A model generated the notes under the pieces. It saw only the letters and a program-made list of their open reading frames with translations. It ran no database searches and was not told where the DNA came from. From Escherichia coli (GTDB taxonomy: Bacteria > Pseudomonadota > Gammaproteobacteria > Enterobacterales > Enterobacteriaceae), in assembly GCF_003334785.1 (NCBI RefSeq), contig NZ_QOWV01000004.1: a stretch of 64,000 nt of DNA; one strand, 5' to 3'. How positions within the stretch are numbered: position 1 is the first letter of the stretch; every line of letters starts with the position of its first letter. Both the position numbers and the translations under genes were made by a program. This document shows positions 8,726-10,510 of the stretch, piece by piece.

Positions 8726-9244
8726 ATGAGTAAGAAAATTGCCGTTTTAATCACTGATGAATTTGAGGATTCAGAATTTACTTCACCCGCAGACGAGTTC
8801 CGTAAAGCCGGACACGAAGTGATTACCATTGAAAAACAAGCGGGTAAAACGGTGAAAGGCAAAAAAGGAGAAGCCAGCGTGACCATCGATAAATCCATCG
8901 ATGAAGTGACGCCTGCGGAGTTTGATGCCCTGCTGCTACCGGGCGGCCATTCACCGGATTATCTGCGTGGGGACAACCGTTTTGTCACCTTTACCCGTGA
9001 TTTTGTGAATAGTGGCAAACCGGTGTTTGCCATCTGTCACGGCCCGCAGTTGCTGATCAGCGCCGATGTGATTCGGGGGCGCAAACTGACCGCAGTTAAA
9101 CCGATCATTATTGATGTTAAAAATGCGGGCGCGGAATTTTACGATCAGGAAGTCGTGGTTGATAAAGATCAGCTGGTTACCAGCCGGACACCGGACGATC
9201 TGCCAGCGTTTAACCGCGAGGCGTTACGCCTGCTCGGTGCCTGA
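8726..9244 (+). CDS. yhbO: DJ-1/PfpI-family stress protein (putative protease/deglycase), 172 aa
   Basis: ATG at 8726; nucleophile-elbow motif AICHGPQLL; ORF-track start at 8684 is an extension. Confidence 0.9.
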
Positions 9245-9667
9245 GTCGCGTAGCCAAATCATTTTTTTACCAAAGCCCAGCGTGTTGTCGGTGAATTTGA
9301 TTTCATCGAGCCGGATTTCCCACACCGGGGCCGACAGCATTCTGGCAACCGGAAAGCGACGATTGTACGCCTTGCGCGCGAGGTCGCTTTCCTCACCTTC
9401 CAGCCTGCGGATCTCACCTTTAAACTGCACACCGCGAATTAACGCTACCGTTTTCGGCTGACCGTTTACCGTTCCGGCAACCGCAGCCTGCGGCCCACTC
9501 ATCTGCGCGTGGCGCGTTTTTTCTTCCGTCAAAATGTAGAAGGCGACTTTCTGCGCATCAAAAAGATAAAAGGCATTAGCGCACCAGAGTTCCCCTTCCT
9601 GCTGCACACACCAAGTGACAACATGTTGTTTTGCCAGCCAACGGCTGATGGCGATGAGTGTTTCCAT
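9224..9667 (-). CDS. yhbP: pyridoxamine-5'-phosphate-oxidase-like FMN-binding protein, 147 aa
   Basis: 147-aa ORF; 3' end overlaps yhbO 3' end by 21 nt (convergent). Confidence 0.9.
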
Positions 9668-9717
9668 TGCTGTTCTCTTTTATACTGTGGGCCTGACCTT
9701 AACATGCGACGCAGACG

Positions 9718-10020
9718 ATGACACCCTGGTTTCTTTACTTGATCCGTACCGCCGACAATAAGCTTTATACCGGGATCACCACGGATGTCGAACGCCGCTA
9801 TCAGCAGCACCAAAGCGGCAAAGGGGCGAAAGCACTGCGCGGGAAAGGAGAACTAACGCTGGTGTTTTCCGCGCCAGTGGGCGATCGTTCGCTGGCGTTA
9901 CGGGCGGAATATCGCGTTAAGCAACTGACCAAACGGCAAAAAGAGCGTCTGGTAGCGGAAGGCGCAGGGTTTGCAGAGCTGTTAAGCAGTCTGCAAACCC
10001 CGGAGATTAAAAGCGATTGA
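9718..10020 (+). CDS. yhbQ: GIY-YIG nuclease-superfamily protein (UPF0213), 100 aa
   Basis: 100-aa ORF; N-terminal [27 protein letters not shown] typical of GIY-YIG. Confidence 0.9.
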
Positions 10021-10510
10021 AATGCTCGTGATACTCAACCAGGCCGGTAACGCCATTCAGCGCGTCATCCGCTAAACGATGTACCTGGAAGGCGCTTTCA
10101 GTGCCCGGCCAGCGGCAACGCAGATCGTGATGCGCCGCCAGTTCAAAGCCGAAACGACTGTACAGCGCCGGATCGCCCAGCGTCACCACTGCGGCATAGC
10201 CGAACTCATTAAGCGAATCGAGTCCTTCATAGACCAGTTGGCGTGCCAGCCCCTGTCCACGGTATTTTTCATCAACCGCCAACGGTGCCATGCCGACCCA
10301 TTGCAGGTCTTCGCCCTGCACATCAACCGGACTAAATGCCACATAGCCAATGACCTGACCTTCGTCATCTGTCGCCACCAGCCCCAGCGTCAGAAAGCCA
10401 TCTTCACGCAGATCGTGAACCAGCTTCGCTTCCGCATCACTTTCGAATGAGCGACGCAGCAGGGCATCAATACCCGGCGCATCAATGGGAATTTCTACTC
10501 GAATTAGCAT
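10007..10510 (-). CDS. yhbS: GNAT-family N-acetyltransferase, 167 aa
   Basis: 167-aa ORF; 3' end overlaps yhbQ 3' end by 14 nt; start overlaps ubiT stop. Confidence 0.9.

Follow-up and report, generated by a model that had tools for sequence, protein, structure and literature searches.

ExcludonFinder's convergent excludons, in which the transcripts of two genes overlap at their 3′ ends, are among the closest described systems to the arrangement of genes that we analyze here. Of these, 165 have been published for Escherichia coli MG1655 (ExcludonFinder, NAR 2025, PMC12288877), and both yhbO-yhbP and yhbQ-yhbS, whose transcripts overlap in this way, are among them. Both pairs also belong to the core E. 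coli excludon list, which holds excludons found in at least 50% of 58 transcriptomes (PMC12288877). Several products of the locus have been described as well. YhbO is a glutathione-independent glyoxalase (glyoxalase III), and its activity has been reported (PMC11987610, PMC12135873). YhbS is HqbA, an Hfq-binding acetyltransferase/regulator encoded by the second gene of the Fnr-induced ubiT operon, and its action on Hfq is independent of acetylation (PMC10710024). By RT-PCR, ubiT and hqbA are one transcription unit, anaerobic induction of UbiT is ~35-fold (PMC10710024), and deletion of yhbQ or yhbP has little or no effect on the YhbS phenotype. The Slx1 family, to which we compare YhbQ below, is defined as lacking a C-terminal Asn that is characteristic of the UvrC/I-TevI lineage.

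The window, by which we mean the whole 64,000-nt stretch of DNA analyzed, corresponds to positions 3,290,249–3,354,248 of the E. coli MG1655 chromosome with 7 substitutions. The yhbO-to-yhbS locus was found in 5,425 of 5,426 complete genomes, and the RefSeq annotations of MG1655 and of one 100%-identical strain give the same gene coordinates; the yhbO/yhbP/yhbQ/yhbS(hqbA) stretch is well-annotated E. coli core chromosome. In the list of open reading frames, yhbO (8726–9244, + strand) encodes a DJ-1/PfpI family protein annotated as "protein/nucleic acid deglycase", yhbP (9224–9667, − strand) a member of the UPF0306/YhbP family with a predicted PNPOx-like split beta-barrel, yhbQ (9718–10020, + strand) a minimal standalone Slx1-like GIY-YIG protein, and yhbS or hqbA (10007–10510, − strand) the GNAT acetyltransferase that binds Hfq. 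The convergent coding sequences of yhbO and yhbP overlap by 21 nt (9224–9244), those of yhbQ and yhbS by 14 nt (10007–10020), and yhbP and yhbQ diverge from a 50-bp spacer (9668–9717); the open reading frames, the sequence, and RefSeq all agree on this geometry, exactly as it had been described in a previous sequence-only reading of the locus. A search against Rfam (E ≤ 1) gave no match within 8726–10510. The observation is confirmed and its interpretation partly supported, and the genes, their overlaps, and the overlapping transcripts are already in public annotation and the published excludon catalogue. What is new here are a covariation-supported hairpin after the hqbA stop codon and, within the 50-bp spacer, a crossed pair of conserved candidate −10 elements.

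A further overlap, not in the sequence-only reading, lies at the other end of yhbS. The start of yhbS is overlapped by 7 nt by ubiT (yhbT; 10504–11028, − strand), an Fnr-activated gene for an SCP2-domain accessory factor of anaerobic ubiquinone synthesis whose product matches NF047962 at 153.6 bits. Wherever both genes were found, the loci share this 7-nt overlap, and yhbS is therefore the distal gene of the ubiT operon.

The locus had been described as four small enzymes of unknown role, which is outdated for YhbO (glyoxalase III), YhbS (HqbA), and YhbQ (annotated as a DNA-damage-response nuclease) and still holds for YhbP, which is uncharacterised. The assignments of YhbO to the DJ-1/PfpI proteins and of YhbS to the GNAT acetyltransferases both stand. 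YhbO matches TIGR01382 at 233.6 bits (cutoff 139.05), is identical over residues 1–172 to the protein of PDB entry 1OI4, named "YhbO" (E = 7e-111), and carries the nucleophile-elbow Cys-His motif AICHGP in its translation. YhbS matches the GNAT profiles PF00583 (1.1e-11) and PF13508 (9.8e-11), and PDB 4RS2 over residues 2–167 (E = 8.8e-111). YhbQ, likewise named correctly as a standalone GIY-YIG fold, matches Pfam PF01541 at 4.5e-16 over residues 4–76; NCBIfam holds no HMM for it, and its RefSeq product name is "DNA damage response exodeoxyribonuclease/nuclease YhbQ". It is a single domain of 100 amino acids, of which residues 98–100 have a pLDDT below 50 in the AF2 model, and the top Foldseek matches of this model are 1ZG2, 1YWL, Slx1 (6SEH, 7CQ2, 4XM5), I-TevI, and UvrC. 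Its PDB relatives are 1ZG2 and 1YWL, and in an alignment of 20 YhbQ-family sequences that includes both, the catalytic residues Y7, Y17, G19, R27, H31, and E64 are all invariant; no Asn is found among the invariant or near-invariant columns. Judged by this alignment and by the model, YhbQ is predicted to be a minimal GIY-YIG nuclease of the Slx1-like type that keeps all its catalytic residues. Its standalone form is the normal one among prokaryotic Slx1-like proteins. The pairing of a standalone GIY-YIG protein with an acetyltransferase, which had been called unusual, dissolves: the two genes stand tail-to-tail, the GNAT gene belongs to the ubiT operon, and the YhbS phenotype is little changed, if at all, by loss of yhbQ or yhbP.

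For YhbP, which had been described as a PNPOx-like FMN-binding protein, the fold was recovered by structure prediction and fold search. The protein matches NF002900 at 267 bits; E. coli YhbP itself gave no Pfam match even at E ≤ 10, to a PNPOx-type profile or any other, and 30 of 67 members of its family match Pfam PNPOx_N (E ≤ 0.001). Its AF2 model has a pLDDT of 95.7, with a last block at 66, and Foldseek returned 149 PDB matches at E ≤ 0.001, of which those listed are PNPOx-like split-barrel proteins or related FMN- or heme-binding proteins, among them 2ARZ, 5BNC, HugZ/ChuZ/HutZ, and further PNPOx-like proteins at E-values of 3e-8 to 2e-5. A profile search also matched 2HTI, 2ARZ, 1RFE, and 3TGV. 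Residues H53, G79, Q81, K124, and W138 are invariant in the family. On its model, then, YhbP is a PNPOx-like split beta-barrel, and since its top structural neighbours include heme-binding proteins, its candidate cofactor may be either FMN or heme. With about 740 clusters at 50% identity, it is a widespread and truly uncharacterised split-barrel protein.

How unusual are the overlaps? As a test against chance, we took the other convergent pairs of coding sequences in 214 kb of MG1655 annotation (the window plus three 50-kb samples). Five of these 33 pairs overlap, each by exactly 4 nt, and none overlaps by more. Overlaps of 14 and 21 nt are uncommon and two adjoining ones are unusual, with the reservation that the case was chosen post hoc. 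Across a conservation set of 80 Enterobacteriaceae genomes with 81 loci, the stop positions of yhbP and yhbQ are kept, and the overlaps are therefore real rather than artefacts of annotation. They persist across the family because conserved codons of the partner, read in antisense, supply each stop codon. The yhbP stop codon TAA is the antisense of the yhbO Leu167 codon TTA; where yhbO is present the overlap almost always measures 21 or 15 nt, and the yhbP stop invariably lies antisense to a Leu codon, TTA or CTA, at either of two positions. Similarly, the yhbQ stop codon TGA faces the conserved codons for Phe-Asn in YhbS, 66 of 81 loci have the 14-nt overlap, and the stop switches between TGA and TAA together with the synonymous Phe codons TTC and TTT. 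The locus illustrates clearly how a convergent overlap of more than 4 nt is fixed through a stop codon dictated by the neighbour's conserved sense codons.

The four genes do not share the same history. In about one third of Enterobacteriaceae loci yhbO is missing beside yhbP (E. albertii, many Citrobacter, Buttiauxella, Trabulsiella, Kluyvera, and others), and YhbP is 5–7 residues shorter in genomes without an adjoining yhbO. As yhbO is absent from the site in so many genera, the four genes are not a unit. An operon or island of the four was considered and is ruled out by gene orientation, by the co-transcription of ubiT with hqbA, and by the patchy occurrence of yhbO. The gene order yhbP-yhbQ-hqbA-ubiT and a GIY-YIG/GNAT overlap of 14–22 nt persist in a lineage that shares just 50% identity in YhbP, and yhbP and yhbQ are still neighbours in more distant contigs. 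In another lineage YhbP adjoins nrdDG, with an extra gene between YhbP and the GIY-YIG gene, and one further contig has YhbP without a GIY-YIG neighbour. Two observations count against purely passive packing: the order and overlap from yhbP to ubiT are conserved beyond what neutral packing strictly requires, and, since none of the 33 other convergent pairs overlaps by more than 4 nt, an adjoining pair of long overlaps may have been selected for antisense coupling.

The spacer between yhbP and yhbQ is 47–56 bp long in 77 of 81 loci and contains two conserved hexamers. On the + strand, a candidate −10 element for yhbQ (TATACT, 9681–9686; predicted start site near 9693) belongs to a TANNNT hexamer that ends 28–33 nt upstream of the yhbQ start codon in 67 of 69 unique sequences and is TGn-extended outside Escherichia, Citrobacter, and Salmonella. 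On the − strand, a candidate extended −10 element for yhbP (TGTTAAGGT, 9696–9704; predicted start site near 9689) belongs to a −10-like TANNNT that ends 27–31 nt upstream of the yhbP start codon in ~60 of 69 unique sequences, TGn-extended in most. A scan with the sigma-70 consensus gave no match in the 50-bp spacer, and the Cappable-seq supplements list no coordinates within its range. That the spacer carries overlapping promoters, as had been proposed, is consistent with these two crossed elements, for which the start sites are predicted ones.

Mutual antisense transcription, the other regulatory claim made for this locus, holds in the sense that the mRNAs must overlap. Because the coding sequences themselves overlap, full-length mRNAs must do so too, and the excludon listing of both pairs follows from this geometry alone. 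In addition, a Rho-termination region labelled "antisense yhbO" was mapped at 8854 on the − strand (MG1655 3299102; Adams et al. 2021 eLife, supplementary file 2), with a Rho score of 4.79 and p = 2.7e-9; by MG1655 coordinate offset it lies ~370 nt past the yhbP stop codon. The antisense stretches are C-rich and G-poor, and the curated aerobic Term-seq list (Adams 2021) contains no discrete 3′ end within MG1655 3,298,900–3,300,699. Transcriptional interference, which had been read from the same overlaps, found no support: in arrays made from double-stranded cDNA, where the strands are not separable, the aerobic/anaerobic ratios are 0.44 for yhbQ, 0.47 for yhbS, and 0.49 for yhbT, so that yhbQ co-varies with ubiT-yhbS and is not anti-correlated with it.

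Downstream of hqbA, folding revealed a strong stem-loop without a following U-tract (9965–10002, − strand), which starts 5 nt past the hqbA stop codon and lies within yhbQ codons 83–95. This stem-loop is GC-rich (−29.9 kcal/mol, z = −3.56), the first 50 nt past the hqbA stop have z = −6.2, and z is below −2 in 35 of 76 unique loci. Its covariation score of 0.210, against 0.119 ± 0.011 after shuffling, was reached in 0 of 500 shuffles, and RNAalifold on a 30-sequence subset recovered 8 hairpin pairs, 5 of them with compensatory changes. On all 60 sequences RNAalifold returned no consensus structure, because the hairpin is confined to certain clades. As an intrinsic terminator 9965–10002 fails, with no U-run on either strand and an empty terminator scan at this place, and aerobic Term-seq data map no 3′ end to it; terminator-like matches inside genes occurred at the level expected from shuffles. 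One distant locus (L085) carries a full canonical terminator at the equivalent place, inside the GIY-YIG open reading frame. Taken on sequence evidence, the ubiT-hqbA hairpin in the tail codons of yhbQ probably acts as a 3′ stabiliser or weak terminator, and an operon's 3′ stem-loop can be written into the coding sequence of its neighbour. An equivalent conserved structure was sought 3′ of yhbP, yhbO, and yhbQ, where median z was −0.84, 0.28, and −0.58. A small hairpin at 9170–9186 was set aside, as it falls in the conserved DKDQLVTSR codons and is inseparable from coding constraint.

We consider it probable that this is a compact, vertically inherited core segment of four separate transcription units (yhbO, yhbP, yhbQ, and ubiT-hqbA) with passive overlaps, and not a functional four-gene cluster; tight packing, and not a new regulatory device, seems to have produced the tail-to-tail overlaps. 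The C-terminal tails of YhbP and YhbQ, which are little conserved and predicted to be disordered, would extend into the 3′ part of the adjacent gene and would end at the first stop codon made in antisense by the neighbour's conserved codons, such that Leu TTA/CTA of yhbO would give TAA/TAG for yhbP, and Phe-Asn TTY-AAY of hqbA would give TRA for yhbQ. The length of the overlap would be frozen across Enterobacteriaceae because the neighbour's C-terminus is under protein-level selection. As there is no room for intergenic terminators, each mRNA would run into the other gene as antisense RNA, and mRNA ends may be made in two ways, by Rho inside the partner gene (from the literature, for the yhbP strand) and, as we infer, by the hairpin for ubiT-hqbA. 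The yhbP and yhbQ promoters may be interdigitated in the spacer, and with their −10 elements crossed, they would probably not be occupied by two RNA polymerases at once. If the convergent partners interfere with each other at all, this is likely to be a mild side-effect and not a switch. The ends of the open reading frames might instead be mis-called and the true proteins shorter, as the poor conservation and predicted disorder of the overlapping tails and the shorter YhbP of species without yhbO could suggest. We find this hardly credible: the stop codons are unambiguous with no earlier in-frame stop, which refutes it for the stop positions, identical stop positions recur in dozens of species, and solved structures match YhbO over residues 1–172 in full and YhbS over 2–167.

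On one hand, selection could have favoured overlaps in which transcribing either gene represses its partner, through polymerase collision and/or cleavage of the duplex by RNase III; for example, yhbQ would be silenced anaerobically by Fnr-induced ubiT-hqbA, and yhbP by stress-induced yhbO. The core excludon list includes both pairs, Rho ends antisense transcription ~370 nt into yhbO, overlaps of 14–21 nt occur in 0 of 33 other pairs yet are conserved across the family and beyond, and the ~35-fold anaerobic induction of UbiT makes convergent traffic condition-dependent. However, that listing follows from coding-sequence geometry, protein-level conservation at the C-terminus of the partner accounts for the length of the overlap, yhbO is dispensable at the site, and the yhbQ array signal shifts in parallel with those of yhbS and yhbT and by the same factor (strands not separable), and we regard such selected repression as unlikely. 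More doubtful still is the more elaborate proposal of an oxygen-responsive excludon, in which the hairpin and the 14-nt overlap would let Fnr-driven ubiT-hqbA lower YhbQ through convergent transcription and the RNA duplex that it produces, the crossed promoters would make yhbP and yhbQ mutually exclusive, and yhbO, yhbP, yhbQ, and ubiT-hqbA would act as three switches coupled in series, connecting stress, DNA damage, and anaerobiosis. On the other hand, linkage could reflect shared function, with a deglycase/glyoxalase, a flavin or heme split-barrel protein, a GIY-YIG nuclease, and an acetyltransferase cooperating in damage control, for instance on glycated or damaged nucleic acids. The RefSeq product names are protein/nucleic acid deglycase for YhbO and DNA-damage-response exonuclease for YhbQ, and yhbP and yhbQ diverge from a ~50-bp spacer with conserved promoter-like elements in 77 of 81 loci and remain adjacent in distant contigs. 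Nevertheless, we hold this to be very improbable, as the genes alternate in orientation and make up four distinct transcription units, hqbA is part of the ubiT operon and has an effect on Hfq that does not depend on acetylation, deletion of yhbQ or yhbP barely affects the YhbS phenotype if at all, yhbO is missing here in many genera, and elsewhere YhbP lies by nrdDG with an intervening gene or has no GIY-YIG neighbour. If the excludon reading were true, a DNA-damage nuclease would be tied to the Fnr-controlled operon for anaerobic ubiquinone synthesis. As it stands, the finding matters little, since for three of the four proteins a structure has been solved, a characterisation published, or both, and the overlaps are catalogued already.

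The locus can be placed beside several known systems. The two divergent candidate promoters resemble the bidirectional (symmetric −10) promoters of Warman et al. 2021 in that divergent promoters share one short AT-rich region and two polymerases are unlikely to be bound together. In that class the hexamers reportedly overlap, with the start sites outside them and ~18 bp from each other, whereas the candidate yhbP and yhbQ hexamers are 9 bp apart and crossed, with predicted start sites between them, ~4 bp apart. YhbQ shares with the Slx1-family nucleases (prokaryotic UPF0213 proteins such as BH0048, 1ZG2, and EF2693, 1YWL, and eukaryotic Slx1) the minimal domain, the invariant Tyr-Tyr-Gly-Arg-His-Glu, and the missing C-terminal Asn, and its closest sequence and fold matches fall in this family; it differs from them in having neither a RING/PHD domain nor an Slx4 partner. 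YhbP has the same fold as the PNPOx-like split-barrel proteins (PA4388, 2ARZ; the heme proteins HugZ/ChuZ/HutZ; FMN-binding BH0577, 2HTI), with TM-scores of 0.6–0.77, but unlike these relatives the E. coli protein falls below every Pfam threshold, with FMN or heme as candidate cofactors. Most excludons have a positive intergenic distance (mean 95 nt, PMC12288877), whereas in yhbO-yhbP and yhbQ-yhbS the coding sequences themselves overlap; and while a functional excludon is defined by mutually exclusive expression, these two pairs are excludons by transcript overlap. Finally, the typical 4-nt convergent stop overlaps of E. coli (amiD/ybjS, ybjD/ybjX, purR/punR, yfeH/ypeB, and yrbL/mtgA) are likewise tail-to-tail and made by stop codons on opposite strands. 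In those pairs the two stop codons share bases, whereas yhbO/yhbP and yhbQ/yhbS share 21 and 14 nt of real codons, with the stop set by the sense codons of the partner.

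The 2.6 kb around the locus is matched in 5,425 of 5,426 complete E. coli genomes, with several strains 100% identical, and the full 64-kb window is collinear with MG1655 3,290,249-3,354,248, from which it differs by 7 substitutions (window coordinate = MG1655 coordinate - 3,290,248). RefSeq annotation and the ORF list place yhbO at 8726-9244 (+), yhbP at 9224-9667 (-), yhbQ at 9718-10020 (+) and yhbS, now hqbA, at 10007-10510 (-); RefSeq also annotates yraR (-), ubiT (10504-11028, -), and ubiU and ubiV (+). The sequence-only reading had described a tight cluster of four small enzymes, and its figures for the yhbO/yhbP overlap (21 nt, 9224-9244), the yhbQ/yhbS overlap (14 nt, 10007-10020) and the divergent yhbP-yhbQ spacer (50 bp, 9668-9717) all agree with the ORF list and raw sequence, as does the AICHGP motif with the YhbO translation. 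A further overlap, of 7 nt between ubiT and the yhbS start (10504-10510), had gone unmentioned. As a rarity sample, we took every other convergent CDS pair in the window plus three arbitrarily chosen 50-kb blocks of MG1655. Five of these 33 pairs overlap, each by exactly 4 nt, and none by more. Against this sample the 14- and 21-nt overlaps are uncommon, and two adjacent ones are unusual, though the case was chosen after the fact. Elsewhere in the window, yrbL and mtgA overlap tail to tail by the usual 4 nt, and elbB ("low activity glyoxalase"), the window's second DJ-1-family gene, lies downstream of mtgA (both in the ~59081-60459 region). The sRNA gene arcZ overlaps the arcB 3' end at about 60689-60697, and below-threshold Rfam hits to the REP-derived RNA family naRNA4 on both strands of the dolP-yraQ convergent intergenic region (6705-6844) are probably REP elements.

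For the comparative analysis, one genome per species was scanned, giving 80 Enterobacteriaceae loci, and five genes per locus were placed by tblastn and extended to their true stop codons. The order yhbP<- ->yhbQ <-yhbS<-ubiT is kept in all of these loci, the yhbP-yhbQ spacer measures 47-56 bp in 77/81, and the yhbQ/yhbS overlap is 14 nt in 66/81 (4, 17 or 25 nt in others, with three lacking any overlap). The junction sequences show that each stop codon is set by conserved codons of the partner gene. For example, YhbS ends in ...H-F-N-R-F* in almost all loci, and the reverse complement of Phe-Asn (TTY-AAY), RTT-RAA, supplies the yhbQ frame with a TGA or TAA stop; the two alternatives both occur, following the synonymous Phe codon of yhbS. 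YhbO in turn has a conserved C-terminus, ...ALRLLGA*, and is in codon register with yhbP, such that antisense stops can arise only from TTA, CTA and TCA; the yhbP stop always lies antisense to a TTA or CTA Leu codon, opposite the first Leu in a 21-nt class and the third in a 15-nt class. Given these partner-set stops, and given that the overlapping tails (YhbP ...SGTEQA, YhbQ ...IKSD) differ among species and are modeled with low confidence, the overlaps resemble passenger extensions that selection on the partner protein has frozen in place.

The grouping into a cluster of four did not hold, as yhbO is missing between yraR and yhbP at about one third of Enterobacteriaceae loci and hqbA belongs to the ubiT operon. 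Genomes without yhbO at this site include E. albertii, E. whittamii, many Citrobacter, Buttiauxella, Trabulsiella, Kluyvera, Raoultella and others (comparative-set loci L006, L007, L011-L012, L014, L016, L018-L021, L023-L025, L027, L037, L039-L040, L059-L060, L063-L066, L069, L071, L074, L076 and L079-L080). There, YhbP ends 5-7 residues earlier (...WLR(D/Q)(L/E)*) and yhbP leads directly into its co-directional neighbor yraR; in E. coli, transcription from yhbP that continues antisense into yhbO may be left over from a yhbP-yraR transcript. The indel carrying yhbO spans window 8644-9244. A more distant lineage, with a YhbP of 50% identity, has the arrangement ubiVU<- ->ubiT->GNAT <-GIY-YIG with a 22-nt overlap; there, an extra gene lies between the YhbP and GIY-YIG genes, and the YhbP gene overlaps nrdG (anaerobic ribonucleotide reductase activase) tail to tail by 20 nt. 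The divergent GIY-YIG/YhbP pair is retained in one metagenomic contig, and one further YhbP homologue has no GIY-YIG neighbor.

The four products had been presented as of unknown role, which applies to YhbP alone. According to two 2025 papers (PMC11987610, PMC12135873), YhbO (PDB 1OI4; 233.6 bits against the DJ-1/PfpI/YhbO model) acts as a glyoxalase III, converting methylglyoxal or phenylglyoxal, and shows no cPGA hydrolase activity. YhbS, a GNAT protein by profile match with a solved structure (4RS2), is now called HqbA; it forms a 1:1 complex with the Hfq hexamer and, independently of acetylation, competes with RNAs that bind weakly (PMC10710024). As the second gene of the ubiT operon, hqbA follows a gene whose product rises about 35-fold anaerobically via Fnr, and an additional internal promoter for hqbA may exist (PMC10710024). 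RT-PCR has confirmed a single ubiT-yhbS transcript, and wherever both genes were found in an Enterobacteriaceae locus, the ubiT stop and hqbA start overlap by 7 nt, a constancy that suggests translational coupling within the operon. YhbQ matches Pfam GIY-YIG at 4.5e-16, with the UPF0213 proteins 1ZG2 and 1YWL as closest solved relatives. The structural check favored the nuclease-fold assignment: the predicted model (pLDDT 87.7) matches 1ZG2, 1YWL, Slx1, I-TevI and UvrC, and the catalytic residues are kept in the alignment, with Y7, Y17, G19, R27, H31 and E64 invariant. The pairing had been called unusual, yet a phylogenomic survey of GIY-YIG proteins assigns proteins of this kind to the Slx1 lineage, defined by the lack of a C-terminal Asn; prokaryotic members typically have no extra domain, so a 100-aa standalone protein is the norm. 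In RefSeq, YhbQ is annotated as a DNA-damage-response exonuclease. E. coli YhbP, the sole truly uncharacterised product, has no Pfam match and no match in a PDB sequence search; at 50% identity its family falls into about 740 clusters. The description "PNPOx-like" was right, as 30/67 family members match PNPOx_N and the predicted model (pLDDT 95.7) is a split beta-barrel. Its top structural matches are PA4388, heme-binding or heme-degrading split barrels (MSMEG_6519, HugZ/ChuZ/HutZ) and FMN-binding PNPOx-like proteins, and His53 is invariant across the family; by this modeling, the label "putative FMN binding protein" may be wrong.

Immediately past the hqbA stop, by 5 nt, a strong stem-loop begins on the minus strand (9965-10002, -29.9 kcal/mol; z = -3.56 over 97 nt), lying within yhbQ codons 83-95; the 50 nt after the stop give z = -6.2. 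A hairpin of differing sequence occupies the same position in Escherichia, Citrobacter, Salmonella, Franconibacter, Trabulsiella, Buttiauxella and a few others (arm pairs GGGGTTTG/CAAACCCC, GGCGTTTG/CAAACGCC, GACGTTTG/CAAACGTC, GGGGCTTG/CAAGCCCC, TCTTTTGAAG/CTTCAAAAGA and CCCCTTGAAG/CTTCAAGGG); Kosakonia, Enterobacter and Klebsiella lack it, and z < -2 after the hqbA stop in 35/76 unique loci. By pair counts in 60 sequences, covariation scores 0.210 versus 0.119 +/- 0.011 when shuffled (0/500 shuffles as high), and all slid controls are lower. For a 30-sequence subset, RNAalifold returned an outer helix of 8 bp, 5 of whose pairs carry compensatory changes; over all 60 it gave no consensus. Compensatory changes across genera support the stem, and some are non-synonymous in YhbQ; in one example, a Gly83-to-Ala substitution pairs with a silent change in a Thr codon. 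The yhbQ tail codons probably encode the 3' stem-loop of the ubiT-hqbA mRNA as well, and on the yhbQ strand, where the hairpin falls inside a translated ORF, ribosomes would unfold it. A canonical intrinsic terminator is ruled out here because neither strand has a U-tract. In L085, the locus from the more distant lineage, a canonical terminator (12-bp stem plus TTTTTTCTGT; L085 3102-3128) lies 30 nt past the GNAT stop, inside the GIY-YIG ORF. No comparable conserved structure was found after yhbP, yhbO or yhbQ.

Within the divergent spacer, a plus-strand TANNNT hexamer ends 28-33 nt upstream of the yhbQ start in 67/69 unique spacers; it reads TATACT in Escherichia, Citrobacter and Salmonella and is TGn-extended elsewhere (TGCTAAGGT, TGCTATGGT, TGTTATTTT). 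The minus strand has a TANNNT hexamer resembling a -10, in most cases TGn-extended as TGTTAAGGT, that ends 27-31 nt upstream of the yhbP start in about 60/69. In the window, the candidate -10 toward yhbQ (9681-9686, +; predicted start about 9693) and that toward yhbP (9704-9696, -; predicted start about 9689) are laid out crosswise, each nearer the opposite gene, with predicted starts between the hexamers and about 4 bp apart. These conserved, crossed candidates support the earlier proposal of overlapping promoters; the open complexes at the two promoters would have to form on one shared stretch of DNA. Consensus scans at the locus gave no convincing candidate for a terminator or a sigma-70 promoter.

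Full-length mRNAs of both convergent pairs must be mutually antisense, as had been proposed, since their CDSs overlap, and both yhbO-yhbP and yhbQ-yhbS are among the 165 convergent excludons found in at least 50% of 58 MG1655 transcriptomes by ExcludonFinder (PMC12288877); yhbP-yhbQ is missing from its 16 divergent ones. The argG/yhbX pair, convergent with a gap of only 7 nt (29732-29740), is also in that list. Functional excludons, with mutually exclusive expression, are the main rival reading, which we consider improbable. The sole expression data found to bear on interference are the aerobic/anaerobic ratios of Myers et al. 2013 (Table S12): 0.44 for yhbQ, 0.47 for yhbS, 0.49 for yhbT, 0.07 for yhbU and 0.115 for yhbV. 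yhbQ shifts together with ubiT-yhbS rather than opposite to it, but the cDNA was double-stranded and strands were not separated, so near-identical ratios are expected from ubiT-hqbA read-through. The yhbQ signal may be antisense RNA from that read-through, and the ratios weigh neither for nor against mutual exclusion. A predicted FNR motif with IHF and Fis ChIP signals lies in yhbO (TTGATAAAGATCAG, 9159-9172; Myers et al. 2013 Table S6), adjoining a small hairpin at 9170-9186.

We regard passive compaction as the best explanation, and a likely one: four independent transcription units whose transcript ends would be made by Rho and by a hairpin embedded in the neighbor's codons. Adams et al. 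(2021) report a Rho-termination region, "antisense yhbO", at MG1655 3,299,102 (-), window 8854 and about 370 nt past the yhbP stop, and in their curated Term-seq list the whole locus is devoid of discrete 3' ends. The read-through stretches are G-poor and C-rich, like Rho substrates. The initial observation was therefore confirmed and its interpretation supported in part. Compared with what is known, the original finding lies wholly within public annotation or literature. Modest additions to that record are the pinning of stops by partner codons, the hairpin with its covariation and the crossed candidate -10 elements.
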